Shown here: piece after piece, positions 38,214-62,089 of the stretch
How positions within the stretch are numbered: position 1 is the first letter of the stretch
Layout of the letters: every line of letters begins with the position of its first letter
From: a phage
Reading direction: 5' to 3' (one strand)
NCBI GenBank assembly: GCA_013585095.1
Contig: GCA_013585095.1_3039.1
Length of the DNA: 64,000 bases
Notes under the pieces: generated by a model
The model's input: the letters and a program-made list of their open reading frames with translations, nothing else
Databases searched by the model: none
Told to the model about the DNA's origin: nothing
Translations under genes and position numbers: made by a program

Positions 38214-38265
38214 AGCTTTATGATTACTGGAGTATAATATTCCCGAAACCAAACGAGGATAAGTG

Positions 38266-40112: not shown

Positions 40113-40137
40113 TAATTGGGCAAATGAGGATATTGAA

Positions 40138-40341
40138 ATGAAATCATATAGAGTAAATTTAGAACTTTTTGATAAAGCAGTTCATCGAGAATATAGAATC
40201 ATTCAACGCTTTTTCGATATGGGAGAAGCCGAAGAATTTAAAAACCGCTTTAAAGATATTAGAGATAAAATTCAATCCGACACTGCAACTAAAGATGAAC
40301 TACTAGAAGTTGCTGAAGTTATTAAGCGTAATATGAATTAA
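40138..40341 (+). CDS. hypothetical protein (T4 rIIA.1 position)
   Basis: 67-aa ORF with GAGGA SD. Confidence 0.5.
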
Positions 40342-40351
40342 TGAGGAAATT

Positions 40352-42529: not shown

Positions 42530-42540
42530 TAAGGAAAATT

Positions 42541-43479
42541 ATGTACAATATTAAATGCCTGACCAAAAACGAACAAGCTGAAATTGTTAAATTGTATTCA
42601 AGCGGTAATTACACCCAACAGGAATTGGCTGATTGGCAAGGTGTATCGGTTGACACAATTCGTCGTGTTTTGAAAAATGCTGAAGAAGCTAAACGCTCTA
42701 AAGTTACTATTAGCGGTGACATTACGGTTAAAGTTAATAGCGATACAGCTATTGCTCCAGTTACTAAATCTGACATTATTTGGAATGCATCTAAAAAATT
42801 CATTTCAATTACTGTTGACGGTGTAACTTATAACGCAACTCCTAATACTCATTCAAACTTCCAGGAAATTCTTAATCTGCTTGTAGCAGATAAGTTGGAA
42901 GAAGCGGTACAAAAAATTAATGTTCGTCGCGCTGTTGAAAAATATATTTCCGGCGATGTTCGAATTGAAGGCGGAAGCTTGTTCTATCAAAATATCGAAT
43001 TACGGTCTGGTTTAGTTGATCGTATTCTCGATTCGATGGAAAAAGGTGAAAACTTTGAATTTTATTTTCCGTTCTTGGAAAATCTGCTGGAAAACCCAAG
43101 CCAGAAAGCGGTATCTCGACTCTTTGATTTCTTGGTAGCAAACGATATTGAAATTACAGAAGATGGTTACTTCTATGCTTGGAAAGTAGTTCGTGACAAC
43201 TACTTTGACTGTCACTCAAACACCTTTGATAACAGTCCTGGTAAAGTAGTTAAAATGCCGCGTACTCGTGTGAATGACGATGATACACAAACTTGTTCTC
43301 GTGGTCTGCATGTGTGTTCTAAATCTTATATTCGTCACTTTGGCAGTTCAACCAGCCGAGTTGTAAAAGTTAAAGTACATCCACGTGATGTAGTATCAAT
43401 TCCGATTGATTACAACGATGCTAAAATGCGTACCTGCCAATACGAAGTAGTTGAAGACGTTACTGAACAATTTAAATAA
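42541..43479 (+). CDS. rIIB: rIIB protein
   Basis: 312 aa, immediately downstream of rIIA. Confidence 0.88.
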   Translation: MYNIKCLTKNEQAEIVKLYSSGNYTQQELADWQGVSVDTIRRVLKNAEEAKRSKVTISGDITVKVNSDTAIAPVTKSDIIWNASKKFISITVDGVTYNATPNTHSNFQEILNLLVADKLEEAVQKINVRRAVEKYISGDVRIEGGSLFYQNIELRSGLVDRILDSMEKGENFEFYFPFLENLLENPSQKAVSRLFDFLVANDIEITEDGYFYAWKVVRDNYFDCHSNTFDNSPGKVVKMPRTRVNDDDTQTCSRGLHVCSKSYIRHFGSSTSRVVKVKVHPRDVVSIPIDYNDAKMRTCQYEVVEDVTEQFK

Positions 43480-43493
43480 GGGCTTCGGCCCTT
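43478..43493 (+). other. GC hairpin with UUCG loop (RNA stability element or weak terminator)
   Basis: AAGGGC-TTCG-GCCCTT, weak U tract. Confidence 0.45.
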
Positions 43494-43511
43494 ATCATAT
43501 TAAGGAAAATT

Positions 43512-43706
43512 ATGTTAGGTTATCAAGCACGAGTAAAAGAAGAATACGATCAATTAATGCTCAAAATTAATGCACTGAGCAAATTTTTAGAAAGCACAAA
43601 GTTTCTAACGGTTAGTGCAGTTGAGCAAGAACTGCTGCTTTCACAGTTCATCTCAATGAAATCTTATGCTGAGTGTCTAGAGAAAAGAATCGCACAATTC
43701 AAATAA
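43512..43706 (+). CDS. hypothetical helical protein
   Basis: 64-aa ORF with AGGAAAA SD. Confidence 0.5.
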   Translation: MLGYQARVKEEYDQLMLKINALSKFLESTKFLTVSAVEQELLLSQFISMKSYAECLEKRIAQFK

Positions 43707-43709
43707 AAT

Positions 43710-43732
43710 AAGGGCTTCGGCCCTTTTGTTTT
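43710..43732 (+). terminator. rho-independent terminator
   Basis: GGGC-TTCG-GCCC then TTTTGTTTT. Confidence 0.8.
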
Positions 43733-43769
43733 AAGAGAAATTATGATTCCGACATAAAGGAAAGTTTAA

Positions 43770-44327
43770 ATGCAGAAAACGAATCCGGGTTTGCAGAGAC
43801 TATTTCAGATTCCGACATTTACTCTATCGAACAGCGATTTAACCAATGAAATGAAGGTCAAAATTGCTGATACAGCAAGATACTCTTTAAAACAAAACCC
43901 GAACCAGGATAAGGCAGAAGTTATCGAAAGATGTCGTATCGCTGTGTATGCTGAGTATGTTGTAGCAGATTGGTTAAGCGGGTATGTTAATAAAGGTCAA
44001 GAAGATGTCGATGATCCGTACACATATGCATGGGATGTTTTAGCGCATCCAAAATATTGCGGGCTTCGTGTAGAAGTCAAAACACATCAAACTGACTCGC
44101 GTTGGATTTCGGTAACAACGGGATGCAGCGGAGAGTATCCATATGGTTCTGGAATAAATTTAGGGCCCATTCTAAATCATCAAGTCGCTGACTGTATAAT
44201 TATATTCAACACTAAAGAAATTCATCCAGGTGTCATCCAGTACACTCCGAAGTTCATCGGTGACAGAGAAGACCTTCGTAAGGTTGTAAGAAAAAGCAAC
44301 TACAACGGATGGTATCTTTCCATTTAA
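43770..44327 (+). CDS. denB: endonuclease IV DenB
   Basis: 185 aa, downstream of rIIB as in T4. Confidence 0.8.
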   Translation: MQKTNPGLQRLFQIPTFTLSNSDLTNEMKVKIADTARYSLKQNPNQDKAEVIERCRIAVYAEYVVADWLSGYVNKGQEDVDDPYTYAWDVLAHPKYCGLRVEVKTHQTDSRWISVTTGCSGEYPYGSGINLGPILNHQVADCIIIFNTKEIHPGVIQYTPKFIGDREDLRKVVRKSNYNGWYLSI

Positions 44328-44403
44328 AAATTTTTTCACAAAACGGTTTACATACCACAAGGACCGTGGTACTATTACCCTATCAACTACGGAGGAGCGG
44401 AAA
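44328..44403 (+). promoter_or_regulatory. promoter-leader cassette copy 3
   Basis: TTTTTTCACAAAACGGTTTACA, 17 bp, TACTAT, leader TACCCTATCAACTACGGAGGAG..AAAATG. Confidence 0.6.
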
Positions 44404-44667
44404 ATGAAATTTAAATTTTATTACGCTAAACATAAAATAACTGATGAGTTTGTGTCAGTTGAATATTCTAGCGATGATGAAGGTATGATTTATACTCGCT
44501 TAGGATTATCGCATTGGGAGTCTGATACGCCTTATTTTTCAACTCCCGAAGAAATTACACGCTTAGTTAATGGTCATATGAATGACCACTGGAATGTAAT
44601 TCTTTCAGATAGTCTTAAAGCGGCTATTAATAGTAATGAAATGAAAATCGCTGAGATTGAGTTATGA
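44404..44667 (+). CDS. hypothetical protein
   Basis: 87-aa ORF. Confidence 0.5.
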   Translation: MKFKFYYAKHKITDEFVSVEYSSDDEGMIYTRLGLSHWESDTPYFSTPEEITRLVNGHMNDHWNVILSDSLKAAINSNEMKIAEIEL

Positions 44668-44839
44668 GTTCACTATGGTGGTGTTTCGTTTGGTTAATTA
44701 GTATTCCATTAATTTGTTTAACATTTACTTTTGTAATGAGATTATTATGAAAATTTTGAATTCTGTACTTATTGCTTGCGCGTGGTGGGTTGCACAGGTT
44801 TCAGCGGTAGTAGTTGGTATTCACATTTATTACGAATAT

Positions 44840-44910
44840 TTTTAAAAAAGTTGTTTACAAGACTGTTCTTCCGTGGTACTATTACTCTATCAACTACGGA
44901 GGAACAGAAA
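44840..44910 (+). promoter_or_regulatory. promoter-leader cassette copy 4
   Basis: AAAAAAGTTGTTTACAAGACTGTTCTTCCGTGG-TACTAT, leader TACTCTATCAACTACGGAGGAAC..AAAATG. Confidence 0.6.
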
Positions 44911-45024
44911 ATGAAAAAGATTATTAAAGCTATATGGAATGTAGTTATAATATTAATAGTTTTGAGTATATTCCCAATCGTTTTAATGATTGATGTATTA
45001 AACGCTTACTTTGGATTTATGTGA
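44911..45024 (+). CDS. hypothetical small membrane protein (37 aa)
   Basis: ORF-track 44776 trimmed to ATG after GGAGGAACAGAAA; one hydrophobic helix. Confidence 0.4.
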   Translation: MKKIIKAIWNVVIILIVLSIFPIVLMIDVLNAYFGFM

Positions 45025-45031
45025 GGAAAAT

Positions 45032-45229
45032 ATGAAGCGTAAACGCAGTGCTTTTACATTTATTGAATGGTTTTTCGATAATATTTTTCCGGCTTTATTC
45101 ATTTTCATGCTGATTTTTGCCTTAGGTTCAGTTGTAGTTGGAATCTATTTGATGGCGGTAGTCGGAATGGATATTCATCAAAATGGTTTAAAATCCGTAG
45201 TTGAAACAATTTGGAATGGTGTAAAATAA
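45032..45229 (+). CDS. hypothetical membrane protein
   Basis: ORF-track 45011 (TTG) trimmed to ATG after GAGGAAAAT; 65 aa, two hydrophobic segments. Confidence 0.45.
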   Translation: MKRKRSAFTFIEWFFDNIFPALFIFMLIFALGSVVVGIYLMAVVGMDIHQNGLKSVVETIWNGVK

Positions 45230-45336
45230 TGAATTTACTAAACATTTGGTTTTATATTCTTATGTTTTACATTGGCGCAAATTTTCCATATTGGATGGGA
45301 TGGTCAACAACTGCATTTGGATTTTATACTCCTTGA
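45229..45336 (+). CDS. hypothetical tiny hydrophobic protein (35 aa)
   Basis: ATG overlaps previous stop (TAATG); read from sequence. Confidence 0.3.
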   Translation: MNLLNIWFYILMFYIGANFPYWMGWSTTAFGFYTP

Positions 45337-45344
45337 GGTGAATT

Positions 45345-45560
45345 ATGAAAATCTTTAAAGATGTAAAAGTTGGTGAAATTTTCTGTTTAGATAACGGTGA
45401 TCAGTTAATTCGTATTTCACCTCTTAAGAGCACTAGCGAGAAACCGACAGTTAATGCTACTTTAGCAAATAATAGTAATGAACGTTTCTGTATTGAAAAT
45501 GATACTGAAACTTACACCGTAGAAGAATTCTGGGAATTGAGCGTCGACTGCGACGAGTAA
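45345..45560 (+). CDS. hypothetical protein
   Basis: 71-aa ORF with GAGGTGAATT SD. Confidence 0.5.
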   Translation: MKIFKDVKVGEIFCLDNGDQLIRISPLKSTSEKPTVNATLANNSNERFCIENDTETYTVEEFWELSVDCDE

Positions 45561-45620
45561 TTTAATGGCCGTGTGTATTCATGCGGCCTTGGAGTAGAAA
45601 ATAATTTAGAGGAAATTAAT

Positions 45621-46079
45621 ATGAAATATATGACTGTTACTGATCTGAACAACGCAGGTGCTACTGTTATTGGTACAATCAAGGGTGGTGAATGGTTTTT
45701 GGGAACTCCGCATAAAGATATTTTATCTAAACCTGGATTTTACTTTTTAGTAAGTAAATTAGATGGTCGTCTATTTAGTAATCCATGCGTGTCTGCACGA
45801 TTTTATGTAGGTAATCAGCGTTCTAAGCAAGGATTCAGTGCAGTTCTAAGTCATATTCGTCAACGTCGGTCTCAGCTTGCACGTACTATTGCAAATAACA
45901 ATGTTCCATACACAGTATTTTATCTGCCTGCTTCTAAGATGAAACCTCTGACGACAGGATTTGGTAAAGGTCAGTTAGCTTTGGCGTTTACTCGTAATCA
46001 TCATTCTGAGTATCAAACACTTGAAGAAATGAACCGTATGTTGGCTGATAACTTTAAATTCGTTTTGCAGGCATATTAA
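45621..46079 (+). CDS. ndd: nucleoid disruption protein Ndd
   Basis: ORF-track 45573 trimmed to ATG after GAGGAAATTAAT; 152 aa; position between denB and stp/ac. Confidence 0.85.
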
Positions 46080-46159
46080 TGAGTAATTTCCACAACGAAC
46101 ACGTGATGCAGTTCTATCGTAACAATCTTAAAACCAAAGGCGTCTTCGGACGCCAGTGA
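46079..46159 (+). CDS. stp: Stp peptide (26 aa; activator of the host PrrC anticodon nuclease in T4)
   Basis: 26-codon ORF, ATG overlapping ndd stop (TAATG), sequence [26 protein letters not shown]; read from sequence. Confidence 0.65.
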
Positions 46160-46166
46160 GGAAAAT

Positions 46167-46322
46167 ATGAAATTTGTTCACGGTATAGCCTTTTTCTGTT
46201 GGTTCTTTTTATGCATCGGAACAGTAATAACTGGAGAAACTTCAGTATTTTTGCAAGCATCAGCTCAGGGCGTATTAGCGATTTTATCATTATTCGCGTA
46301 CATTGGTTCTAAAAATAGTTGA
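46167..46322 (+). CDS. small membrane protein, paralog of Ac (51 aa)
   Basis: GAGGAAAAT SD; shares FxCW..SVF.QA.AQG pattern with next ORF; read from sequence. Confidence 0.4.
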   Translation: MKFVHGIAFFCWFFLCIGTVITGETSVFLQASAQGVLAILSLFAYIGSKNS

Positions 46323-46332
46323 GGAGAATATT

Positions 46333-46491
46333 ATGAATATCGCAAAATTATTAGGAGTTATTTCATTTATTTGTTGGATAGTAGCATGTGTTTTAACTAT
46401 CTGTATTGATGCTAGCAGTGTGTTTTCGCAAGCTTTAGCTCAGGGTATGTGTGCATATTTAACATTTGTGTTGTTATCTACTAATGATTAA
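46333..46491 (+). CDS. ac: Ac-like small membrane protein (acriflavine sensitivity locus position)
   Basis: ORF-track 46303 (TTG) trimmed to ATG after GAGGAGAATATT; 52 aa hydrophobic. Confidence 0.5.
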   Translation: MNIAKLLGVISFICWIVACVLTICIDASSVFSQALAQGMCAYLTFVLLSTND

Positions 46492-46624
46492 GAAAATCTT
46501 GGGCTATTCATTAGCCCTTGCTATTTTATTAATAGCACTATATTATGGAGTAATGTTTGGATTAATTCAAGTCGTGCTTTTCATTTCTGATGTTATTATG
46601 GCACTACATTCACTAGTATGGTAA
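46484..46624 (+). CDS. hypothetical small membrane protein (46 aa)
   Basis: overlaps ac 3' end; hydrophobic; read from sequence. Confidence 0.3.
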   Translation: MIKKILGYSLALAILLIALYYGVMFGLIQVVLFISDVIMALHSLVW

Positions 46625-46628
46625 ATTT

Positions 46629-47957
46629 ATGCAACTGAATAATCGCGATTTAAAAAGTATCATTGATAATGAAGCATTGGCTTATGCTATGTACACGGTT
46701 GAAAATCGTGCTATTCCAAATATGATTGATGGATTTAAGCCAGTTCAACGATTTGTTATTGCTCGAGCTCTTGATTTGGCACGAGGAAATAAAGATAAGT
46801 TTCACAAACTCGCTTCTATTGCAGGTGGTGTAGCGGACCTTGGATATCACCATGGTGAAAACTCTGCACAAGATGCGGGGGCTTTGATGGCTAACACTTG
46901 GAATAATAACTTTCCTTTATTAGATGGTCAAGGAAACTTCGGTTCTCGTACTGTCCAAAAGGCAGCAGCTAGTCGTTATATTTTTGCTCGTGTAAGTAAA
47001 AATTTCTATAACGTATATAAAGATACTGAATATGCTCCAGTACATCAAGATAAAGAACACATTCCGCCTGCTTTCTATTTGCCTATTATTCCTACTGTTC
47101 TTCTTAATGGCGTTTCCGGTATTGCAACTGGTTATGCAACTTACATTCTTCCTCATAGTGTTTCTTCTGTTAAGAAAGCTGTACTGCAAGCTCTTCAAGG
47201 AAAGAAAGTAACTAAACCGAAGGTAGAATTCCCAGAATTTCGTGGTGAAGTCGTTGAAATTGATGGGCAATATGAAATTCGTGGAACATATAAGTTTACT
47301 TCACGAACTCAAATGCATATCACTGAGATTCCGTATAAGTATGATCGTGAAACTTATGTGAGTAAAATCTTAGACCCACTTGAAGATAAAGGCTTCATTA
47401 CATGGGATGATGCTTGTGGTGAGCATGGTTTTGGATTCAAAGTTAAATTCCGTAAAGAATATTCTTTGAGCGATAATGAAGAAGAACGCCATGCAAAAAT
47501 TATGAAAGACTTCGGGTTGATTGAGCGTCGTTCTCAGAATATTACCGTCATTAATGAGAAAGGAAAACTGCAAGTTTACGATAACGTAGTTGATTTAATT
47601 AAAGACTTTGTTGAAGTTCGTAAAACTTATGTCCAAAAACGAATTGATAACAAAATCAAAGAAACTGAGTCAGCTTTTCGTTTAGCCTTTGCCAAGGCAC
47701 ATTTCATTAAGAAAGTAATTTCAGGTGAAATTGTTGTACAAGGTAAAACTCGCAAAGAACTGACCGAAGAACTTTCTAAAATTGATATGTATTCTTCTTA
47801 TGTTGATAAACTAGTTGGAATGAATATTTTTCATATGGCTTCCGACGAAGCAAAGAAACTTGCTGAAGAAGCTAAAGCTAAAAAAGAAGAAAACGAATAT
47901 TGGAAAACTACTGATGTAGTTACAGAATACACCAAAGATTTAGAGGAAATCAAATGA
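46629..47957 (+). CDS. 52: type II DNA topoisomerase medium subunit gp52
   Basis: 442 aa; GyrA/ParC-like N-terminal region. Confidence 0.9.
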   Translation: MQLNNRDLKSIIDNEALAYAMYTVENRAIPNMIDGFKPVQRFVIARALDLARGNKDKFHKLASIAGGVADLGYHHGENSAQDAGALMANTWNNNFPLLDGQGNFGSRTVQKAAASRYIFARVSKNFYNVYKDTEYAPVHQDKEHIPPAFYLPIIPTVLLNGVSGIATGYATYILPHSVSSVKKAVLQALQGKKVTKPKVEFPEFRGEVVEIDGQYEIRGTYKFTSRTQMHITEIPYKYDRETYVSKILDPLEDKGFITWDDACGEHGFGFKVKFRKEYSLSDNEEERHAKIMKDFGLIERRSQNITVINEKGKLQVYDNVVDLIKDFVEVRKTYVQKRIDNKIKETESAFRLAFAKAHFIKKVISGEIVVQGKTRKELTEELSKIDMYSSYVDKLVGMNIFHMASDEAKKLAEEAKAKKEENEYWKTTDVVTEYTKDLEEIK

Positions 47958-48103
47958 GTCCATTCATAGGTATTACAAGCGCTGCATTAGTATCCGGTAG
48001 CATTTTACTGGCGGGTTTAGGTGTTGTTCCAGCCGTAGCAGGAGGTCTTCTTGCGTTCGGAATTCAACGTGTTATCATGACAGTTATCACAGTCATGCAG
48101 TAA
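47954..48103 (+). CDS. hypothetical small membrane protein (49 aa)
   Basis: ATG overlaps gene 52 stop; Gly/Ala/Val-rich helix; followed by strong terminator. Confidence 0.35.
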   Translation: MSPFIGITSAALVSGSILLAGLGVVPAVAGGLLAFGIQRVIMTVITVMQ

Positions 48104-48108
48104 TTTTA

Positions 48109-48134
48109 GGGAGAGCCTCGGCTCTCCCTTTTTT
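48109..48134 (+). terminator. rho-independent terminator
   Basis: GGGAGAGC-CTCG-GCTCTCCC then TTTTTT. Confidence 0.85.
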
Positions 48135-48136
48135 AT

Positions 48137-48229
48137 TTTAAAATTTTTTCACAAAACGGTTTACAACCAAAGCATTCTATGGTACTATACAACTATCAAC
48201 TACTGATACAGAATTACGGAGATTAGAAA
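48137..48229 (+). promoter_or_regulatory. promoter-leader cassette copy 5 (motA promoter)
   Basis: TTTTTTCACAAAACGGTTTACA, 17 bp, TACTAT, leader ACAACTATCAACTACTGATACAGAA..GGAG..AAAATG. Confidence 0.6.
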
Positions 48230-48865
48230 ATGTCTAAAGTAACTTACATCATTAAAGCTTCTAACGATGTTCTGAATGAAAAAACTGCTGCGATTTTAAT
48301 TACCATTGCTAAGAAAGATTTCATTACAGCTGCAGAAGTTCGTGAGGTGCATCCAGATTTAGGTAACGCAGTAGTTAATAGTAATATTGGGGTATTGATT
48401 AAAAAAGGCCTGGTGGAGAAATCTGGTGATGGATTAATCATTACTGGTGAAGCTCAGGATATTATTTCAAATGCAGCAACTTTATACGCACAGGAAAACG
48501 CTCCTGAACTGCTGAAAAAACGAGCAACTCGTAAAGCTCGCGAAATTACTTCTGATATGGAAGAAGATAAAGACTTCATGTTAAAACTTTTGGATGAAAA
48601 TGGATTTGTTCTTAAAAAGGTTGAAACTTATCGTAGTAACTATCTCGCTATTTTAGAAAAACGCACTCACGGAATTCGTAATTTTGAAATTAACAACAAT
48701 GGAAATATGCGAATTTTTGGATACAAAATGATGGAACATCATATTCAGAAATTTACTGACATCGGAATGTCATGTAAAATCGCTAAAAACGGTAATGTGT
48801 ATCTTGACATTAAACGCTCGGCAGAAAACATTGAAGCAGTAATCACTGTAGCATCTGAACTGTGA
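48230..48865 (+). CDS. motA: middle-transcription activator MotA
   Basis: 211 aa; T4 synteny after gene 52. Confidence 0.88.
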   Translation: MSKVTYIIKASNDVLNEKTAAILITIAKKDFITAAEVREVHPDLGNAVVNSNIGVLIKKGLVEKSGDGLIITGEAQDIISNAATLYAQENAPELLKKRATRKAREITSDMEEDKDFMLKLLDENGFVLKKVETYRSNYLAILEKRTHGIRNFEINNNGNMRIFGYKMMEHHIQKFTDIGMSCKIAKNGNVYLDIKRSAENIEAVITVASEL

Positions 48866-48875
48866 GGAATAAATA

Positions 48876-49205
48876 ATGAACAAGTTAGAAATTGTCAATG
48901 AACTTCGTCGTTGTGCAGAACCTACTCAAGAGGGTTGGGATATTTGGTACCATGGAGCTTATCTTGGAACTATTGTAAAGATTAAGACTGGTAAATACAT
49001 GATTATTCGTGAAAGTAAAGATGCTCCAGTAGGTATTCGCAATAATTTTATGGCAGCGATAAGTTCCTTTACAGATGCAGCTTACGAAATTTACCTTGCC
49101 GATTATAAAGAATTCCAGGAATCTCAACCGGTTATTCGTTCAATTGGTGTTAACAAAGCTCAACAGAAAACTTTGTGGCAGCGTATTAAAGGATGGTTTA
49201 AATGA
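48876..49205 (+). CDS. hypothetical protein
   Basis: 109-aa ORF with GAGGAATAAATA SD. Confidence 0.5.
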
Positions 49206-49663
49206 AAACTTTTAAAGAACGTTTAGCTCTGTTAGATAAAGCTTTATCTCGTGAGACTCCGGAAAGTCTGGCTGCTAAATTAGCTTCTTATGGTGGTGAA
49301 TATACAGAACAAAATGTTTTAGATGAAGTTCCTGAAATCTGTTGGCAGACTGCATATTGGGATGAAAACCAAAAGTATCAACGACGAATTGTCTGTGCAG
49401 CCAACCGTTTTAAATTAAAAGATGGACGAACTCTTATTATTCCAGGTGCTCGTCATTATTCTAAAGATATGGCAGAAGTTTTAGATGTAGTTAAACCTCA
49501 ATTAGTTACTCAACAAGTTTGTGATGATGACCAAGGGTTTATTGACCAATATAGTAATTATTGGACTCGCGAAGAAGCAATGATTATTGCAACTTACGCT
49601 GGACAAGTACGTATTGAACGTGGTGGTAGTGAAAAAGAACTTTACTCTGAGGACCTTTACTAA
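49202..49663 (+). CDS. hypothetical protein
   Basis: 153-aa ORF. Confidence 0.5.
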
Positions 49664-49959
49664 TGAATATTAAAAAGTTTCAAATCGATGGAATTATGAA
49701 TCAAATCCAGGCACTAGAATATGCCAATAAAATGATGTCAACTAATTGGGGAATTTATACCAATGAGCCGGGATTTAAGTTCTGTGATATGGAATTTACT
49801 AAAAAGCTTGTAGGAAAAGATTATGTATGTCCATTTAGTTCTATAATAAATGACATGCTAAAACCTGCTTTACGCGATCTTTATATTGCGATGAACGAAG
49901 AGATGATAAAAGAGCTAAAACGTCAACTGAAGGTGATTCAATTTGGCCAGGGAAATTAA
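49663..49959 (+). CDS. hypothetical protein
   Basis: 98-aa ORF. Confidence 0.5.
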   Translation: MNIKKFQIDGIMNQIQALEYANKMMSTNWGIYTNEPGFKFCDMEFTKKLVGKDYVCPFSSIINDMLKPALRDLYIAMNEEMIKELKRQLKVIQFGQGN

Positions 49960-50161
49960 TTCAAAATCTGACTATTTTAATTCTCTTAATGATAAAGATA
50001 AAAATCTAATACGGCATTTTATTGTTGAGATGGGATATACCGATACACGCGATTTAAGAGAACATATATTTGAATGTGGTGTAGCTAAAAAGTTTTCATT
50101 CACATGCAAATGTTTAAGAGAGGTAATTCAGCACTATGAACAATTTAGTCGCAAAACATAA
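49943..50161 (+). CDS. hypothetical protein
   Basis: 72-aa ORF. Confidence 0.45.
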   Translation: MAREINSKSDYFNSLNDKDKNLIRHFIVEMGYTDTRDLREHIFECGVAKKFSFTCKCLREVIQHYEQFSRKT

Positions 50162-50957: not shown

Positions 50958-51614
50958 TTATTTAGCCCTTCCTAATATTCTGGCCGCCTGAGCACATATT
51001 GATTCAAGGCGGTCATTACTTATATGATCATTTCTATACCAGTACATGGTTATTGTTCCAGCATAGATATTATCCAAATTAAAATATGGACAACTGTACA
51101 TGTAGTTTATTTCGGGAGTAGGCTTTTTAGTTGGTAAAAAAGCAAATTTTGAGTTGGAATAATAATGACGTCCATTTAAATGAACTGCATATTCATCCAT
51201 AGTTTTATCAACAGGATATCCTCCAAGTGATTTTTCACTTATTGTTGAAGGTAATTTTCCTTCATATGCTATAATATCAACAAAATAGTTTAAGTTTTTA
51301 GGGCGGAAAGAATACACCGCACTAAAGTCTGCCTCAGATGATATGTGAACTATCTGGAGTTGTTCCAGGGCGACAGATTCAAAGCGTGCATTTCTTTCCT
51401 TTTCAATAATTTCACTGTATGTTTCATACTTTGATTGCTTATAGTACTCAAAGAAACTATCTCCCCTATACCAAACAATCGCCATCATAAACAAAAGAAT
51501 TACGACAGCTACCCGGGAAGCAAGAACTTTCCCGGTAGCGTTATCTTTGAACAAGCGATCTAGAACACCAAATAGAATATCAGAGGGCGAAAGTGATATT
51601 CTAGGTGCTGCCAT
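50958..51614 (-). CDS. t: holin T
   Basis: 218 aa; single N-terminal TM segment and large periplasmic domain; convergent with asiA. Confidence 0.9.
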   Translation of the reverse strand: MAAPRISLSPSDILFGVLDRLFKDNATGKVLASRVAVVILLFMMAIVWYRGDSFFEYYKQSKYETYSEIIEKERNARFESVALEQLQIVHISSEADFSAVYSFRPKNLNYFVDIIAYEGKLPSTISEKSLGGYPVDKTMDEYAVHLNGRHYYSNSKFAFLPTKKPTPEINYMYSCPYFNLDNIYAGTITMYWYRNDHISNDRLESICAQAARILGRAK

Positions 51615-51646: not shown

Positions 51647-52432
51647 TTATACTCTTGAACCATATATTGTGCCAACTTTAGTCCAAGTTGGAGCATTACC
51701 AGTAACAGCTTTACCAGCCGCACCGCCGTTATATTCTGATCCTTGACCACGAATATTACATTTACCACCTGCGGCACCAGCATCACCGCCGTTTCCGCCA
51801 TTGTAGATACCGTTTACAGACCCTTTACCGGGTGCAGAAATAGTACCAGCAGTAGCACCTTGTTCCATATTAGCAGACCCACCAGCAGCGCCAAATGGAC
51901 GACCGCCGCCACCGCCAAAGGTTAATCTCATTTGTGAAAAAGGAGAATAATACCCGCCGCCACCGCCGCCACCGCCGCCTGCGATAACACCATTGTTGTT
52001 AATACGTAATCTAGTTCCAATTCCGTTATTTATTGCAGTTCCTCCTGCTCCACCAGCAGAGTTATTTCCGCCATTCCCGCCGCGACCCCAAACATGCACG
52101 CCTGAATTGATATTAAGTGTCACGTATGCATTAGTTAATGAGCTAGGAAAATCTAAGCACGGTTGACCTGTCGATGAAGAAACGATATTGCCTGTAATTG
52201 TAATAACAACAGGAGTACTTCCTTGGGCTTTTATCCAATTTATTAGTGTGTCTTTATTGTAAGAATTGCTAGCACCAATGCTATAATATACTTCTTTAGA
52301 TTGCCCAGCCATTGAACTCATCCAACCGGGAACTGAAACACGAACAGCTTTCATAGCAGCATCCATCCAGCGTTGTCCAGTTTCATTCACGGCAGATTCG
52401 CCAATCCAGCCAGGAACACCTACAATTGCCAT
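51647..52432 (-). CDS. 38: long tail fiber adhesin gp38 (T2-type)
   Basis: 261 aa with glycine-rich motifs (GGNGGNNSAGGAGG, GGGGGGGGGYY, GGGGGRPFGAAGG) between variable segments; downstream of gene 37. Confidence 0.85.
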   Translation of the reverse strand: MAIVGVPGWIGESAVNETGQRWMDAAMKAVRVSVPGWMSSMAGQSKEVYYSIGASNSYNKDTLINWIKAQGSTPVVITITGNIVSSSTGQPCLDFPSSLTNAYVTLNINSGVHVWGRGGNGGNNSAGGAGGTAINNGIGTRLRINNNGVIAGGGGGGGGGYYSPFSQMRLTFGGGGGRPFGAAGGSANMEQGATAGTISAPGKGSVNGIYNGGNGGDAGAAGGKCNIRGQGSEYNGGAAGKAVTGNAPTWTKVGTIYGSRV

Positions 52433-52444
52433 TAAAAATCCTTA

Positions 52445-52460
52445 GAGGGCCGAAGCCCTC
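52445..52460 (-). other. intercistronic RNA hairpin between genes 37 and 38
   Basis: minus-strand GAGGGC-UUCG-GCCCUC followed by AAGGA SD of gene 38. Confidence 0.5.
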
Positions 52461-52462
52461 TT

Positions 52463-55400
52463 TTACATAAGTTTAGATTCAAGTTCTTTTACACGAGCAG
52501 AAAGTGTTTTCACAGCTTCAACTAGAAGAGCAATCTGGGATTGAGAAGAAACAGTGAGTATTTTATTACCCTTAATATCTTCAACTTCACGAACTGCTTC
52601 TGGTAAAACATCTTGCAGTGTTTGAGCCACAATACCCGCTTCAGTCTGAACAATTTCACCGCCTATATAGTCAGCTTTATCATAGATTAAACCATCAAGC
52701 TGTTCAACCTTTTCAAGAGCATTTTCAATAGGTCTGAAATTAGATTTCAAATGAATATCAGAACGAATATAAACGTTTGGTGCATTTATATTCATGTCAG
52801 AATAAGTGTCACCCGACTGAAATCTCATTCGGCGTGCGGCGTTAGTAATGATATCAAGAATTCCGTCACCGGATTGTTTAATTCCAGTATCATTATCACC
52901 AAATGCTATACTATTTCCACCAAGTGCGTTATTGATATTAATACCAAATGAATTTGTTTGATTAATACCAGCTACAGTAGCATTATTTACTACAAAGCGG
53001 TTAGCTCCACCTGGAGTCTTTTCAAAGTAAGCAATATAGTTAGTTTCATCTGCAATTTCAATGCGGTTACCGCGAGAAGCATCGCCAGCATGAAATATTC
53101 TCATATTTCTCGGGTTAGCACCAGACTTATCAAAGTTAATGCTTCCATTATTTTTGATGTTAAGGCCATTATAAAACTCTGATGCCCCAGAAACGCTCAT
53201 AGAGTTTGAAATAGTTACTTTACCTGAAGCGATATTGATAGAAAAAGGTCTCAAGCTATTATAAGAACCCGAGGCTTTAGTTTTATCAGTATCGGTATTT
53301 TTATCTGTTAATAATATGTGGAACGTAGTACCATCATTATAAAACAGAGCAGCTGCAGAGCCACTTTCGTCGCCGTTAGATTTGTGACGGTATCCTATAG
53401 TAGTATTTGCCACAAAAGTTGCATTTGTAGAAATATTAGAACTACCCGCGTCAAAAACGCCTGAGCTATTATTAAGAAGTTTAAAAACACGACCTTTAAC
53501 AATATCTACAGGAAGCTCTTCTACCGGTGATTGCGTAGGCCCATATAATCCATGAACTACCACAGAAGCATTTTCTGAAGTGCTATATTCTATGGTAAGT
53601 CTATTTAAATAAGTGCCACAACTAATATAAACATCATACTCATCGCCTGAGGTATTAATATACGCAATATCTTTAATAGCATCTGTTTCACGTTGCCACA
53701 AAACACCGTTAATTCCTTTAGGTGTATTATTACCAGAACGTAATACAATTTCATTAATTGTTGCTTGTTTGAAAATACCAACGTTAAAACCGGAACCGCC
53801 TGTTATTTTAAATTGGACCGTAGCTACACCTTGAGGCATAGTTACTGTTGCCAATTTATACCAACCGCTTACAGAAGAATAGTTAATCCAGCCGGTAGTT
53901 ACTTTATGGTTTAAAGTCGTATCTAAGTTAGCAAAATTGCCAGAACCACCGGTAATATTACCAGTTCTATCAAATCTGACTTTGCCTGCTATTAAATCGC
54001 GAGGTGAAATAAAATCACCGTTTTTAATAAATTCCCATCCAAAATCAGCAGTCTGTGGACCTGTAGAACCGTTATCTCCGCCGCCATGGTAATGAACTCG
54101 GAAATTACCATTATTAATTAAAGTCCCTAATGAATAGCAGCCGTTGCCTTGAACATATCGTTGTTTCAAAATCGGAACATATGTACTAGTATCAGTTCTA
54201 TCAATATTCATATAGAACGGCGCACGGACATTTTCATTATTCTGAGAAGCAAATGAACCCGCGCCTGCCGGGCGAACAGCATCAGTACATTCTGCATCAA
54301 TGTACGCAGCCTGACCTATCTGCATACGATAATTAGGAGAAATACGACTATGACTAGTAACAACAACAAGTTTATTATCGTTGTCTACGGTAATCATATT
54401 GCCACCTCTACCATCATCGCCTAACGTGACAGAATGACGCATTTGTACCATACCGTTATTAAGGCTGATACTTAACGGGCGAAGATTACTTATTCCACCA
54501 CTTTCACCAGCATCTTTAGGGGTTGGAATAATATGCAATGATGCTTCTGAACGACGGAAAATAGCACCATATTCAGCATTCCAAATTCTTAATGCATCTG
54601 CCGTTCCACCAAATTTAGCCTGACCATTTACAGATAATCCATTATTTGCAACTAAACTTGATTCAGTAACAATAGAACCAGATGATGTAATACCACCACC
54701 GGTTAATAATGCTCCAGCAACTCTAAATTGAATTACTCCAGTTGTTGAACCTGGTGCAGGAGCTATACGTTGCGCATAAAAATAATAACCTTGTCCATCA
54801 GCTACTTCAAAAACTGATTCACGAGTGCGATCGCCAGATGCGTTAAATGAATTACCCCACGCTTTAATAGATACATAACTTTTATTCTGACCTGCGCGAG
54901 TACCACCAGCCCACAGTATAGTTTTAGTGCCATCTACTGATGTAGGCGCATCAAGTTGAATACCATCAGGTCTAGCACCAGTAAGAACTAATCCGTTATC
55001 AAATTTAATTCTTTGTATTGAAGATACTGTTCCATTAGCATAAAACTGTACGTTATTAGAGCCAGTTACCAATTTCAAAATACCAGGGTTAATTTCCATA
55101 CCTTCCTGCGTATTAATGTTGGTTTGGCCTTTACCGCGGAAATAATGGGAAAATTTACCGCCAGAATTATATCCAATGTGGGTTTGACCATCGCCTGCGT
55201 TATTCACATCTGCCTGGGTTTGAACAGACAAGAGAGCAGCGTTCGTTCCAGGCATTGTCCAGGTTCCGCCTTGGTCTTCTGAACGTCCAAATAAACCTTT
55301 GCGAGTACTGCGGAAACTGTCAGGAGTAATAGAAGCAACAGAATTCCAATTACCTACTAAATCATAAACACCTTGCTTAATATATTTTAAACCGGTTGCA

Positions 55401-56362
55401 GCATCACCCAAAGCAATATATCTTTCTCCCATTGGAGTAGGAGAGCCGTAGTTGTTAGTATTTTCGTCAGTGGTAATTGTGCCAATAGCAAGTGAACGAC
55501 GTAATACCATTGCGCCATCATTACGAAGACCCATTAATTTAGTAGTAAGTGTATTTCCGGTCCACCAAGAAATTTCATCATTTTTACCGGTTTGAGCTGA
55601 AGCGATTTCATGGTAAATAGTTCCGCCTGATTTAGCTCGAACTTTACGAAGATAGTTTATACCGTTTTCTTCACCGGTTCCAGGATAAACATATTGAACT
55701 AATGATTGCGAATCGTATTGTCCAAATGCTTTTGTGTCTAAAACAATGGTTTTCGTATTAACTTGTGGAGCAGAAACTATTCCAGTAGCTGAATTAATAT
55801 TGCCTGAAGCGGAAATATTACCTTTGCTGACAAATAAATCGCCTGTGTCAACTTGGAAATTACCATTACGATTAAAAGTCCAATATTTCGAATCCCCAGA
55901 TTCATTGATGTAATGAATCTTAAAACTTCCTTCAGCAACCAATGTACCCGCTGAAAAAGTTCCATCTTTATAGCGTTGCTTAATGAGTGGATGATATTCT
56001 GAAATAGAAGTAGTTGAACTTAAATCTGTAAAGATAGGAGCTTTATTTAGGTGTTGATTTGCCCACGCACCATTACCAGCTGTTTTAGGTAAAAATTCAA
56101 TATATTTTCCTGCATAAACAAACTGATTTCCATTGAGATTGTATGTACCGTTCTGTAAATAATCTCCAGTTTGAGTGATATTACCACTGATATTACCGCC
56201 AGTGGAAATGCTTAAGTCAATGATATTTCCTGAATCATCTTTAGTAAAAAGAGTACGGTCTTTTAAGTTTATAGCCAATTCGCCTTCGGCTAATACTGAA
56301 GCAGCAGGACGTGCACCTGCGATTTTGCTTCTTTTAAATTGTATTTGTTTTAAAGTAGCCAT
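52463..56362 (-). CDS. 37: long tail fiber distal subunit gp37 with C-terminal intramolecular chaperone-like domain
   Basis: 1299 aa; conserved N-terminus [16 protein letters not shown]; C-terminal about 100 aa start SDIHLK (Ser..Lys dyad spacing of S74-type self-cleaving chaperones). Confidence 0.9.
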
Positions 56363-56370: not shown

Positions 56371-57033
56371 TTAATAATAGCCGAAATCTTGAACAGAATC
56401 CTTAATTACGATTTGGTCAAATCGTGGAACGTGTGAAGGTTGAGATGCAGGATTCTGCGAAAAAAAGTTTGGTGCGGTTAAGTTTCCCGTCATAGTGTCA
56501 CCAGATCGTAACACTCTAGAGTTAGCATTTGCCGTAACAGTATTTATTGCTCCATCAACATAGTCCTTTCTAGTAAGGTCATTTGCTGATACAGGAGAAA
56601 CTGCATTACTTCTTATTTGACCTACTGCTGTCACAACGCCTTTTGTACTAATATCACCATTACGTGCATTAATTACAACAGTTCGGTCTGCTGAACCTTG
56701 TGATGATTTAAAACCAATACCATTCCACGAAACGATGTCAATATTTGCCATAGCAAAAGTAGCTGCATCACCGTTACCTGGATAAACACCGCACTGTTGA
56801 CTACTACCTATAGTAGGAACATGTACTCCTCCATTAAATCGAACAGTCGCGGCGTAAGTACCACCATTAGCTTTAGAAACAAAATCGTTATCAACAGCTT
56901 GTGGTTTATTGTATTCTGAATATATTTTAAATGATTTATAGAGTACATCGTCACCAGCTGGATTCAATGGAAAATTTCCTTGATGCCAAATGACAGAGCC
57001 TCCGGTTGTTGAACCTACTTTTAAATCAGCCAT
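56371..57033 (-). CDS. 36: long tail fiber distal connector gp36
   Basis: 220 aa; synteny 35-36-37. Confidence 0.88.
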
Positions 57034-57095: not shown

Positions 57096-58211
57096 TTATA
57101 CTTCTCTAAATTCTTGCCCAAACACTTTACCAGTTTTAGACGATGCTTGCGTAGGAAGTACCATTATATCCGGAGGTGAAGCAGATTCACAGATATAATT
57201 AACACGAATACCATTGACGCCAAATTCAGCAGGTTTTGAAATGCCGCCATTTCTTGATACTTCAGAAAAGCTTAAATTTCTCATGCCACCTTGACCAGCT
57301 TGTGCAGTTCTTTGTGCGTATATCGTAAATCCCACAGCGTTTTCTGGAACAACTACATAATCTTCCTTTAATTCCCAAGACCCAGCTTGTCCGGTGAACT
57401 CAGCTTGTGTTGAAGAAATATATCCATTAGATGCATTATAAAAACGGATGGATATATTTGTGGTTCCAAGCGCAAGTAAATCAGCATCAGCATATAACTG
57501 AGCTTTAAGATAAAGAACATCACCAGGAATTAAATTATAATCAGATAATTTACTTATAGCAGCTGAAGTTGGTAGACGCGCAATTTCGTTATTAGTTCCA
57601 CCAACCGCTGACATAAATTGCTCAACGCTTTCATACGTTCTTCTTGGAAACCCGGTAGCTCCGACGTCTTCTAAACTGTCAAATACAACATCTAAAATAG
57701 TTTGATAATCATCTGTGCTTTTTCTATTACTCAGTTTAACATGCTCTAATGCAATAGCTCTTTTAGAAGAAGTATAAAAAGCAGCATATGATACGTCAAA
57801 TCTTGACAATATAGAGTCAGATGGAAAGGCAGACGTTCCGGCGGTTCTTAACCAAGATACTACTTCAGGAGGAAAATTAACCTTTCCGTTAGTTAATATA
57901 GCAACAATTCGATTATTCGTCAAAGAATTCATGAAACTAACAAAAGCAGCTGATGTAGTATCATTTGAAGTCGAAAAAGCATATGATTTACTATCAACTA
58001 ATGCTCCGGTGGAAGGGTCAAAAACTCTTAAATGAAGGCCTGCGCTAAATGTTTGACTTCCTACAGGATTATCCTGAAATTTAACGTATGGTCCTGCTGT
58101 AGAAAGCGGGCAAGAACCCGCTATACTTATTTTGTATCTTACTGAATTACTTTCCGATAAAAATGGCGTTTGGACATATCCTTGTCCAAACTCTGCCATA
58201 AATTTTTCCAT
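57096..58211 (-). CDS. 35: long tail fiber hinge protein gp35
   Basis: 371 aa; synteny. Confidence 0.88.
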   Translation of the reverse strand: MEKFMAEFGQGYVQTPFLSESNSVRYKISIAGSCPLSTAGPYVKFQDNPVGSQTFSAGLHLRVFDPSTGALVDSKSYAFSTSNDTTSAAFVSFMNSLTNNRIVAILTNGKVNFPPEVVSWLRTAGTSAFPSDSILSRFDVSYAAFYTSSKRAIALEHVKLSNRKSTDDYQTILDVVFDSLEDVGATGFPRRTYESVEQFMSAVGGTNNEIARLPTSAAISKLSDYNLIPGDVLYLKAQLYADADLLALGTTNISIRFYNASNGYISSTQAEFTGQAGSWELKEDYVVVPENAVGFTIYAQRTAQAGQGGMRNLSFSEVSRNGGISKPAEFGVNGIRVNYICESASPPDIMVLPTQASSKTGKVFGQEFREV

Positions 58212-58219: not shown

Positions 58220-61200
58220 TTATTCAACCCATTCAAATTTAACAGTTTTATTCACTGGGTCAGGAATAATGCGAACATTACCAATTCGCAAGAAATCGCG
58301 AATAGTAAGATTCCCCATTGTAGCATTATCAGATGGTAAAGCACCGATATCAGATGGTTGAGGAGGGTTACCTCCATCAAATACCTGAACAAAACTTGAC
58401 CAAGAGTTTTTGGTTTTCTGCCATGTACGTGTCCAGCGAGTGGTACGCGCTTCTGGTGTCGTTGGATAAGTAATCCAATCTTGGTAAAGCGAATCAAGTG
58501 TGTTACCAAATTGTGTCAGTGTACCAGGAGATTTAACTTCTTCGCCACGTTCTAAGTACGGAAGTCCAGTCACTTCATTAGTTTTTTCAACCATTTTAAA
58601 ATAACCCGGGAACTGGTTATAAGTAGCTGAATCATTAATATCAATTGACCAGAATCCTACAGTATCAGATGTTGGTGCGCGAGTGTATAAATCAGCAGTT
58701 TTAGTACCCTGAGAACGAATTCTCGAGTTAACGGTTAAACCACCAGAATTTATAGTAGCGCCTTTGGCAATGATTAAGCTTTCACCGATCGTTACTTGTC
58801 CAGATGCATTATTAATAGCTAAAGGGCGTAATCCATTAAATCCACCGGTCTGATCACCCGATGCAGTAAGCATAAAATAGGTGTTAGCAGCATCATTGCG
58901 AATAAAGAATCCATAGTCGCCATTTATTGCTCTGAAAGCATTTGTTGATTTACTGATGAATTCGCCATTAGCAGTAACTGAACTACCAAATGTTGCAACG
59001 CCGTTAGCGTTCAAAGAACCTGAAGCGTTAACATTTATCGGCATCACAGTACCATTAATGCTAAACGTTATATTCCCAGCTTTATTACGTTGAGAATAAA
59101 AGTGATTAGACGTTTCATCACCAACTTCAAATACAGTAGAACGTGTTGTATCTGAACCGCCACCAAACTGATTTCCCCAAACTCTGATAGTCATCGTCTG
59201 CGCTGGGTTAGTTCCAGTTTGAGGTCCTTTCTCAAAAATCAGACGAGTTGCCGTTCCAGTATTAGAAATAGTTAATGTACTATTTGCCGAAACTGAACCA
59301 CCAAACGTAGCAGTACTAGATGATACAAGAGGGGCACTCAGATTCGTTTGTTGGGTTAAGGTTAGTGAACCATTAACCGTCTGTGCAATATCCCTACGAA
59401 TGAACTGAGATGAATCTAGGCCATCTAATAAATTTGCGTCAGCAGCTTTTGCTTTTAACGGCAGATAATTTGCTAATACACGGTTTAATTCATATGGTGA
59501 TACCGCATAGCTATTTTTCTCATACAGTTCTAAATCTTGGGTAGAACCGACTGTATCATTACCAACGAATGTAATTGAACCAGATGAAGTTTTAACAAAA
59601 CCTCTTATTGCAGTAGTAGCTGCCCAAGTAGGTTCACTCTGCACAATCCATTTTAAATTTTTTGGAGATACAGCAGTATTTGCTGATGTTCCAGCTACGG
59701 TTTCAGCTTGAGTTGCAACTTTAATAACACCTTCTTGCGATTCGGTAGATTTAGTACCTAAAAGCTTTTTAGGAGTTATTAAAACATTATCTAATGTTCC
59801 TGCAGCAGCTTCAACTTGTGTAGCTACACGAAGTGTACCACGTTGCGTCTCATTTGCTTCAAGAATATTAAGGGTATAATGGTCCCAGAGAGTTCCTGAT
59901 TCAACTAATCCAGATAGAGCAACAACAGAAGTACGATCAGTACTATTAAATCTGGTTTTAATTTTTAATGGTGTAGAGATACGAGTATCGTCGACGCCTG
60001 CGTCGAATTCAACTTGTGTAGCAATTTCAGCTATACCACTTAAACTTTCAGTTGCTCTACGGTCATTTAAAGTTTTAGGAGTGACTGCACGAGTATAATC
60101 AGTTCCTGTATTAACTTCACTTTGCGTAGCAATTTCAATTAAACCAATTCTTGCATCAGTTGATGTCTTTTTATGTAACGTTTCTGGCGTTACAACCGCA
60201 TTTGCCCATCCTTCTTGGCTTTGTCCAGCAATTACTTCACTTTCAACTGCTAAAATTACTGCACCTTGCTGTGTTGGAGTAGCTTTATACTGATCCAAAG
60301 CTTTAGGTGAAACAACTAAATTATTAGTGTTTTTATTATAAACATTCGTACCATTTAATTCACGGCTAGAAGCTGGAGTAGCTCCTGCAGTAGATACAAA
60401 AGTTACAATACCAGATAATGATTCAGAACCTTGACGAGCTTGAAGCTTTTTAGGAGTAATGATTGTAGTATCATCAGTACCTGCATTAGTTTCTTGCTGC
60501 GTAGCAATTTCTGCGACACCTCTGCGAGTTTCTGTAGCAGTTCTTTCATTCAGCTTTTTAGGAGTGATGATAATATCATCAGCAAAAGAGAATGTGGTGT
60601 TCTGATTCACTTGAGCAGTAGTTGCTATTCTTGCGATACCTCTACGAGTTTCTGTAGCAGTACGATTAGCTAACGTTTCTGGAGTAATTGCTAATTCTTT
60701 TTGTGGAGAATTTTCTAAATCGACATTAGCTTGAGCTTGTGTAGCTAAAGCAATTACGCCTAATCTTGCTCTAGTAGAATCATTTAAAGAATCTACTCTT
60801 TCGACAGTTGGAACGTTTTGCTGTACAACCCAGTATTTTCCATCAGAATCTTCTATATAAGCAAGCTCTAAAACTGGAACATAATTAGTTTCACCATTAA
60901 AAACTAATTCTTGAACTGTAACCCACTCAGCTTCAGGCGGATATTCTGAGCGTTTTGGGAATTGCAGCAATTGAACTGAAGAAGCAATTTTATCTTCACC
61001 AGCAGCTTTGATTTTAACTGTTTGTCCTTTTCTCATGTAATTCATGGAAATTTTAACAGTATCACCAACAGAGATATCAGTAGGAAGCTGAAGCTCAATT
61101 GTCTGAGTCATTCCATTATTCGCTCCAAATACCATAACTTCTTCATTTGGACGAATGTTTGAATTAGTCGTTATAATACGTAAACGTGCTTTACTGTCCC

Positions 61201-62089
61201 CGTCAAACAATCTCCACAATTTCTCGTTATCATCAAACATCAAGAAACCGTCAATCGATGTACGGCCTTCAATAGAATGAGTTCCATCTTCTTGTATTGA
61301 AGTAGTTTCATCGTATGTAGTAACAATTGTATGATAAAGTGGATTCAGTTTATCTAAATCGACGAAATTAATAATATCGCCATGATTAGCAAATCTTGGA
61401 AGCTTAATATTTATCGGTGCAGCAGAAGTAAATCTACGTACGATAAAATCGTTTGATTGCGCTTGATAAGTATTCGCTGGTGTTACAATTACAGCTTCTC
61501 TACTATAATCAGCAACATACATTTGCCACAGACGATTACTAAAAATTAAAACTAGCTGTGACTTTGGATGAGTCATTAGTACTGAACGTACTTGTTCACC
61601 TCTGAAGTTTACAATACTTTGCACTGGAGCTACAATTAAAACTTGGTTAACTCCAGGTTTTCCTCCAATATCTTGGAGAACGATAGTATCACCATCAATT
61701 GGGGTAGATGGTAAAGTAAATGTAATATCATTACCAGCTGCGGTGTTAACCGAAATAGCTTCACCGGATTTTAATTGATATGAACCAGATGAAACCGTAA
61801 TCCAGTTAGCATCGGTACGTAATGCTCTCCAGCGTCCGCTATTAAAAGCTCCTGCCGGTTTTGGAATATCATTTATAGCAGCCCAAAAGCGGTTATCATA
61901 AATGATTACAAAATCTTTTAAATATCCACGAGTTGGATCATATTGTTGAACTGTGTTTTCTTGAATTAAGTAATCAACGTTAACACCGTCAGTTCCTACG
62001 GCACGATCAGCTAAAGCTACGTTGATTATTTTATCGCCACCTGCGTCCAGACCGTCTTCTGCTCTGAACTTTCTTTTAATCTCGGCCAT
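58220..62089 (-). CDS. 34: long tail fiber proximal subunit gp34
   Basis: 1289 aa; about six 40-aa internal repeats (..TETRRG.A.IAT..E...GTD.T.ITPKKL). Confidence 0.92.
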   Translation of the reverse strand: MAEIKRKFRAEDGLDAGGDKIINVALADRAVGTDGVNVDYLIQENTVQQYDPTRGYLKDFVIIYDNRFWAAINDIPKPAGAFNSGRWRALRTDANWITVSSGSYQLKSGEAISVNTAAGNDITFTLPSTPIDGDTIVLQDIGGKPGVNQVLIVAPVQSIVNFRGEQVRSVLMTHPKSQLVLIFSNRLWQMYVADYSREAVIVTPANTYQAQSNDFIVRRFTSAAPINIKLPRFANHGDIINFVDLDKLNPLYHTIVTTYDETTSIQEDGTHSIEGRTSIDGFLMFDDNEKLWRLFDGDSKARLRIITTNSNIRPNEEVMVFGANNGMTQTIELQLPTDISVGDTVKISMNYMRKGQTVKIKAAGEDKIASSVQLLQFPKRSEYPPEAEWVTVQELVFNGETNYVPVLELAYIEDSDGKYWVVQQNVPTVERVDSLNDSTRARLGVIALATQAQANVDLENSPQKELAITPETLANRTATETRRGIARIATTAQVNQNTTFSFADDIIITPKKLNERTATETRRGVAEIATQQETNAGTDDTTIITPKKLQARQGSESLSGIVTFVSTAGATPASSRELNGTNVYNKNTNNLVVSPKALDQYKATPTQQGAVILAVESEVIAGQSQEGWANAVVTPETLHKKTSTDARIGLIEIATQSEVNTGTDYTRAVTPKTLNDRRATESLSGIAEIATQVEFDAGVDDTRISTPLKIKTRFNSTDRTSVVALSGLVESGTLWDHYTLNILEANETQRGTLRVATQVEAAAGTLDNVLITPKKLLGTKSTESQEGVIKVATQAETVAGTSANTAVSPKNLKWIVQSEPTWAATTAIRGFVKTSSGSITFVGNDTVGSTQDLELYEKNSYAVSPYELNRVLANYLPLKAKAADANLLDGLDSSQFIRRDIAQTVNGSLTLTQQTNLSAPLVSSSTATFGGSVSANSTLTISNTGTATRLIFEKGPQTGTNPAQTMTIRVWGNQFGGGSDTTRSTVFEVGDETSNHFYSQRNKAGNITFSINGTVMPINVNASGSLNANGVATFGSSVTANGEFISKSTNAFRAINGDYGFFIRNDAANTYFMLTASGDQTGGFNGLRPLAINNASGQVTIGESLIIAKGATINSGGLTVNSRIRSQGTKTADLYTRAPTSDTVGFWSIDINDSATYNQFPGYFKMVEKTNEVTGLPYLERGEEVKSPGTLTQFGNTLDSLYQDWITYPTTPEARTTRWTRTWQKTKNSWSSFVQVFDGGNPPQPSDIGALPSDNATMGNLTIRDFLRIGNVRIIPDPVNKTVKFEWVE

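Follow-up and report, generated by a model that had tools for sequence, protein, structure and literature searches.

The 64,000-nucleotide stretch of phage DNA analyzed here (contig GCA_013585095.1_3039.1; hereafter the window) comes from the genome of a Tequatrovirus, a T4-like coliphage. On its minus strand it carries g37 and g38, which encode the distal subunit of the long tail fibre and the adhesin of the fibre tip. The start of g38 lies 30 nucleotides past the g37 stop, and both reading frames are intact. A first-pass annotation of this locus had described gp37 with a self-cleaving, chaperone-like C-terminal domain, paired with a T2-type gp38 adhesin, and had taken the two together to form a proteolytically matured fibre tip. 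We find this interpretation supported, with corrections to some of its particulars. The features on which the argument depends are listed below.

52463-56362, minus strand: g37, precursor of the long tail fibre distal subunit, 1299 amino acids plus stop (open reading frame; phrog_1699; megablast)
52763-56362, minus strand: predicted mature gp37, residues 1-1200, ending ...NAPNVYIR (cleavage position taken from the alignment)
52466-52762, minus strand: C-terminal intramolecular chaperone (Peptidase_S74) domain of gp37, residues 1201-1299
52760-52762, minus strand: Ser1201 codon, TCT, for the predicted nucleophile, with which the released chaperone would begin (151/157 conservation; alignment with 3GUD and MyRF)
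52751-52753, minus strand: His1204 codon, CAT, at an alignment position that holds Arg in 115/157 sequences and Lys in 16/157
52745-52747, minus strand: Lys1206 codon, AAA, for the residue predicted to act as general base in the Ser-Lys dyad (151/157 conservation)
51647-52432, minus strand: g38, tail-fibre tip adhesin, 261 amino acids plus stop (PF05268, PF21721, 6F45_D, phrog_2056)
52307-52432, minus strand: N-terminal attachment domain of gp38 (PF21721), residues 1-42, with Trp9, Trp22 and Trp37
51683-52087, minus strand: specificity region of gp38, about residues 116-250, in which glycine-rich motifs and hypervariable segments alternate
51953-51979, minus strand: nine-glycine run of gp38, residues 152-160, aligned with the long glycine-rich motif of S16 gp38

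The PHROG family phrog_1699 ('long tail fiber protein distal subunit') covers the whole of gp37 (residues 1-1299, 1129 bits), and megablast matched the g37 genes of Tequatrovirus phages. On sequence grounds, the last 99 residues are an S74-family intramolecular chaperone domain. They begin at Ser1201 and run to the end of the protein, as first described; the description of the feature was accurate, but its end coordinate (52765) takes in one extra codon, that of Arg1200. Residues 1201-1258 are covered by the full profile of PF13884 (Peptidase_S74, chaperone of endosialidase; positions 1-58 of 58; E 3.4e-12, 46.9 bits), and the isolated last 100 amino acids score 52.5 bits, the gathering score of this family being 22. 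A homologue search with the last 145 residues returned seven short fragments only, too shallow for a good alignment, and HMMER, run exhaustively against 1.84 billion representative proteins, returned 13,322 clusters at E<=0.001. The window sequence, the 150 best representatives and six earlier hits were combined into an alignment of 157 rows, and in 141 of the 156 homologues the S74-type domain lies no more than 10 residues from the C-terminus.

Family membership, which the first-pass annotation had proposed, was borne out by structures as well. With the single sequence, the only convincing match to the gp37 C-terminus in the PDB was 6F45_A, the gp37 of phage S16. A 31-sequence profile was needed before the MyRF, 8JOV and GA-1 structures were matched; it recovered S16 gp37 (6F45_A, E 8.7e-17), the ICA domain of MyRF (7DC3, E 2e-11), the tail fibre 8JOV (E 9e-11) and the released neck appendage chaperone of GA-1 (3GUD, E 1.6e-4). 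Ile1199 was missing from the first row of the alignment behind this profile, and the outcome was unaffected. The first residues of 3GUD, SDERHK, align with SDIHLK in the gp37 of the window.

The S74 domain had initially been recognized by the Ser-x4-Lys spacing of its putative dyad and by the flanking pattern. The residues themselves are highly conserved, with Ser1201, Asp1202 and Lys1206 each kept in 151/157 aligned sequences. The spacing, in contrast, is found at six places in gp37, where composition alone predicts 5.1, so that the evidence lies in the domain match and not in the spacing; SD followed at this distance by Lys occurs once. This SD-x-x-x-K motif stands at the very start of the domain and aligns with SDRRIK in S16, SDERHK in GA-1 and the S587/K592 positions of MyRF. 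Ser1201 aligns with the residue at which the released GA-1 chaperone begins and with the position of MyRF S587 (PMC8326128), and the equivalents of Lys1206 are endoNF K916, MyRF K592 and T5 pb1 K1269. Members of the S74 family cleave by means of a Ser-Lys dyad (endoNF S911/K916, T5 S1264/K1269, MyRF S587/K592) that is active in the folded trimer only (PMC4690869; PMC8326128).

The flanking residues point to the same bond. The NVYIR^SD junction (^ marks the observed or predicted cut) aligns with NVYIR^SD in T2, DVYIR^SDGRLKI in fPS and DLNVS^SDRRIKK in S16 (PMC7917993). In S16, the final 113 residues of gp37 autocleave at DLNVS^SDRRIKK, exposing a docking surface, and the same cleavage has been predicted at DVYIR^SDGRLKI in T2-like Yersinia phages (PMC7917993). 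In T2, C-terminal processing of gp37 is followed by gp38 capping, according to work of 1986 (Drexler, Riede and Henning) as cited in PMC3157838. Among CHARACTERISED phages, the T2 chaperone domain is identical to that of the window at 86/99 residues (87%), with an identical NVYIR^SD junction. From this identity and from the homology to S16 we infer that the chaperone domain is released autoproteolytically.

A separate phage or host protease might instead remove the C-terminal segment, with the S74-like sequence serving as a trimerization and folding module only. The 1986 work on T2, in the account given in PMC3157838, showed processing and left the protease unidentified, and no enzymology of T-even gp37 was found in the literature examined. 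However, thousands of homologues retain the catalytic Ser and Lys, which would be unexpected for a purely structural module. Moreover, Ser-to-Ala or Lys-to-Ala substitution blocks cleavage of MyRF, and the same dyad has been reported for endoNF and transposed to T5 pb1 (PMC4690869; PMC8326128). The closest solved relative, S16 gp37, is itself reported to autocleave (PMC7917993). We therefore consider a separate protease highly unlikely.

The second component of the tip, gp38, was confirmed as a protein of 261 residues directly downstream of gp37, with up to nine consecutive glycines. PF05268 matches its residues 47-261 (E 2e-71, 240.7 bits) and PF21721 (Gp38_N) its residues 1-42 (E 7e-18, 64.8 bits); a Pfam scan at E<=1 returned these two families only, and no tail-assembly-chaperone family, so that it gave no sign of kinship with T4 gp38 or with lambda-type tail-fibre assembly proteins. 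The protein belongs to phrog_2056 ('tail fiber protein; host specificity'). Residues 8-259 align with the S16 adhesin structure 6F45_D (E 4e-49), and the gp38 moiety of a GFP-gp38 fusion (9V85_A) is matched as well (E 2.5e-32). The three Trp by which S16 gp38 (6F45_D) plugs into the gp37 tip (PMC6851490) have their aligned counterparts in Trp9, Trp22 and Trp37.

These matches also bear on whether gp38 could be an assembly chaperone that, like T4 gp38, is not kept in the virion, leaving receptor recognition to gp37. Many records do label homologues 'distal long tail fiber assembly catalyst' or 'tail assembly protein', but such annotations are legacy transfers from T4. The structure matched is that of a virion-tip adhesin, the docking Trp are conserved, and the literature places this type of gp38 on the fibre tip as a determinant of host range (PMC6851490; PMC3157838). 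With adhesin families alone in the Pfam scan and a match to the S16 adhesin structure, a T4-type chaperone identity was rejected, and we give the assembly-chaperone explanation almost no credence.

Glycine makes up 23% of gp38, with nine in a row at residues 152-160, five in a row at 173-177 and nine GG pairs. The long glycine-rich motif of S16 gp38, with which the nine-glycine run aligns, forms helix 3 of a polyglycine sandwich (PMC6851490). In an alignment with T2, T6 and Bas39, the glycine-rich motifs are conserved and the intervening segments are variable, an organization described by Trojet et al. 2011 (PMC3157838).

The earlier designation of gp38 as a T2-type adhesin, as opposed to a T4-type protein, holds for the adhesin function and for the attachment domain, but not for the specificity domain, which resembles that of T6. 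Over residues 1-115 the identity is 76% with T2 and 45% with T6; over the remainder of the protein it is 79% with T6 and 60% with T2. Judged by these identities, gp38 is chimeric, T2-like in its attachment part only. Previous work has found that the N-terminal subtype of gp38 co-varies with the C-terminal subtype of gp37, in the manner of lock and key, while specificity domains are freely exchanged (PMC3157838). In the window, the gp37 C-terminus and the gp38 N-terminus are both of the T2 subtype, in keeping with the lock-and-key rule, and the combination of a T2-like N-terminus with a T6-like specificity part fits modular exchange of specificity domains. At least 31 phage records contain this specificity domain at 99-100% identity. 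As a side observation, the annotated T6 gp38 (AP018814, 10711-11508) has four extra codons (LEKI) ahead of the conserved start, MAVVGVPGW, at which the other phages begin, and its start codon is probably misannotated.

The sequence of gp38 also allows a prediction of its receptor. It is 98.5% identical to the gp38 of the BASEL phage FriedrichMiescher (Bas39, MZ501066), for which Tsx is the primary receptor and the deep core of lipopolysaccharide is also required (supplementary table, PMC8594841). Given this near-identity and the Tsx dependence of Bas39, Tsx is the probable receptor of the gp38 encoded in the window.

Taken together, these homologies suggest a route by which the fibre tip would mature. 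On this account, gp37 would be synthesized as a precursor of 1299 residues, of which the last 99 would trimerize via a C-terminal coiled coil and nucleate folding of the trimeric beta-helical fibre. Once the trimer had folded, Ser1201, activated by Lys1206, would cut the Arg1200-Ser1201 bond in each chain; the chaperone trimer would then leave, exposing a blunt gp37 tip that ends in ...NVYIR. A single gp38 would dock there by its N-terminal helical bundle, with Trp9, Trp22 and Trp37 entering three symmetry-related pockets, for a predicted stoichiometry of three gp37 chains to one gp38 (3:1). The polyglycine sandwich of gp38 would hold the hypervariable loops toward the receptor, most probably the nucleoside channel Tsx. 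We regard self-cleavage of gp37 by its S74 domain, followed by capping of the fibre tip by the gp38 adhesin, as very probable.

Several observations weigh against this account. The AlphaFold monomer model was mediocre (predicted local distance difference test score, pLDDT, 66.8), and Foldseek returned no match at E<=0.001. In endoNF (R897) and T5 (R1250), a sensor Arg from the beta-helix of an adjacent chain completes the active site, but no Arg is found 14 residues upstream of Ser1201 here; R1180, conserved in T2, and R1200 are candidate folding-sensor residues, and an assignment requires a trimer structure. On the side of the receptor, one residue in hypervariable segment 2 (R vs K) separates the gp38 of the window from that of Bas39, and single substitutions in segments 2 and 3 can switch specificity (PMC3157838), so that the assignment to Tsx is probable and not certain. 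Finally, His1204 stands where 131/157 aligned sequences have Arg or Lys, and by analogy with MyRF it could reduce the efficiency of cleavage.

In the cleavage motif SDxRLK this last residue is the fourth, with one residue between it and the catalytic Lys, and no other row of the 157-sequence alignment has His there. Arg is found in the closest relatives, P0001 and P0002 (99% identical), a difference of one base (CAT vs CGT). In MyRF, substitution at the equivalent position (R590A) leaves a cleavage that persists but is incomplete and occurs at aberrant or new sites (PMC8326128), and a reduced efficiency with His1204 could be expected from this partial and aberrant cleavage. At the extreme, the substitution might cripple the S74 domain by stopping or slowing autocleavage, so that gp37 would stay full-length or be trimmed by another protease, with gp38 docking impaired or achieved otherwise. 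Yet Ser1201, Asp1202 and Lys1206 are intact, His retains a partial positive charge, and the R590A change did not abolish cleavage of MyRF. A further 22 homologues are naturally non-basic at this position (N, T and S, with single instances of D, Q, G and A), and g37 and g38 are intact open reading frames in a phage that we assume to be viable. A crippled domain thus seems unlikely to us. His1204 could be neutral, could reflect a sequencing difference or could alter the kinetics modestly. It is similarly doubtful that His1204 tunes autocleavage (e.g., by making it slower or pH-dependent), or that the mosaic gp37 shaft carries a new secondary binding activity. If His1204 did tune cleavage, this phage would be a natural variant in which to study the timing of chaperone release relative to gp38 docking.

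Self-cleavage and capping by an adhesin would place this fibre tip among several known systems. T2 has the same operon order, g37-g38-t; it differs in the length of gp37 (1341 amino acids vs 1299 here, with a mosaic shaft), in having Arg in place of His1204, and in the specificity part of gp38, which in the window is closer to T6; T2 itself uses FadL and OmpF. In the S16 tip complex (PDB 6F45; Dunne et al. 2018), gp37 forms a trimeric beta-helix and loses its C-terminal intramolecular chaperone by autocleavage, while gp38, a monomer, is built of an attachment domain with three Trp, a beta-helix and a polyglycine sandwich; the alignments predict the same architecture for both proteins here. In S16, however, the stalk before the cleavage site is unrelated in sequence except for the last few residues (DLNVS^SD vs NVYIR^SD), the chaperone has 113 residues vs 99, and the hypervariable loops, host and receptor differ from those of the window phage. 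Bas39 and about 30 other Tequatrovirus isolates (NR1, slur02/04, REP1, Sf24, JK38, teqhal and others) have gp38 proteins 98.5-99.6% identical to that of the window. The gene order is shared as well, but the gp37 shaft is mosaic, and the chaperone domain is identical to that of Bas39 at only 85/99 residues. The S74 domains of K1F endosialidase (3GW6), GA-1 (3GUD), the L-shaped fibre pb1 of T5 (4UW8) and the eukaryotic protein MyRF (7DC3) are likewise among the closest known systems. T4 shares the genomic position and gene names, but T4 gp37 binds the receptor with a tip of its own and depends on two separate chaperones, gp38 and gp57; T4 gp38 is an unrelated protein, absent from the virion (PMC3157838; PMC6851490), and the Pfam scan gave the gp38 of the window no match to that type.

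Given these comparisons, the T2-type gp37/gp38 tip of the window is a routine member of a well-described system. Processing in T2 and autocleavage in S16 have already been published, so that the inference drawn in the first-pass annotation restates published biology. Nor does it open a new biological question, because gp37 maturation and gp38 capping were shown in 1986, rationalized structurally in 2018 and are now routine in genome papers. Its value is one of annotation: mature gp37 is predicted to end at Arg1200, and gp38 should be described as an adhesin and not as an 'assembly catalyst'. The prediction of Tsx as receptor is useful for choosing host-range or phage-therapy cocktails.

The nearest relative of the locus differs module by module, and by this measure the locus is mosaic. 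Across the whole tail-fibre locus (51647-56362) the best nucleotide identity is 89% (KFS-EC3), while the chaperone domain is best matched by REP4 (99% amino-acid identity) and gp38 by phage NR1 (99.6% identity). Shaft modules also appear to be common to the proximal and distal half-fibres, in that two stretches of the gp37 shaft within residues 509-632 (about 54467-54838, minus strand) match PF21446, the C-terminal trimerization domain of gp34 (E 2.4e-10), and gp34 residues 919-1158 match the gp37 PHROG family.

The long-tail-fibre operon as a whole occupies the minus strand between about 62.1 and 51.6 kb, in the order g34-g35-g36-g37-g38, and is followed by the holin gene t. The remaining features are listed below.

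58220-62089, minus strand: g34
57096-58211, minus strand: g35
56371-57033, minus strand: g36
52444-52461, minus strand: hairpin with a GC-rich stem of 7 base pairs and a UUCG loop, a terminator-like site between the g37 stop and the g38 ribosome-binding site
50958-51614, minus strand: holin gene t, an open reading frame directly after g38

The hairpin between g37 and g38 has a predicted folding energy of -13.4 kcal/mol (z -2.1). T2 and Bas39 share this sequence without a change, and in T6 the site is occupied by another hairpin. It may be an mRNA-stabilizing or attenuating element.

Outside the operon, the 20 kb at positions 30000-50000 are 96-97% identical in nucleotide sequence to Shigella phage Sf22, phage Kha5h and many others, and contain rIIA, topoisomerase genes, dda, rIIB and motA. 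Scans of positions 1-64000 found no tRNA genes and no Rfam families at the gathering threshold. Near 50 kb the sign of the GC skew flips, at the point where coding passes to the minus strand with the block of t and g38-g34.

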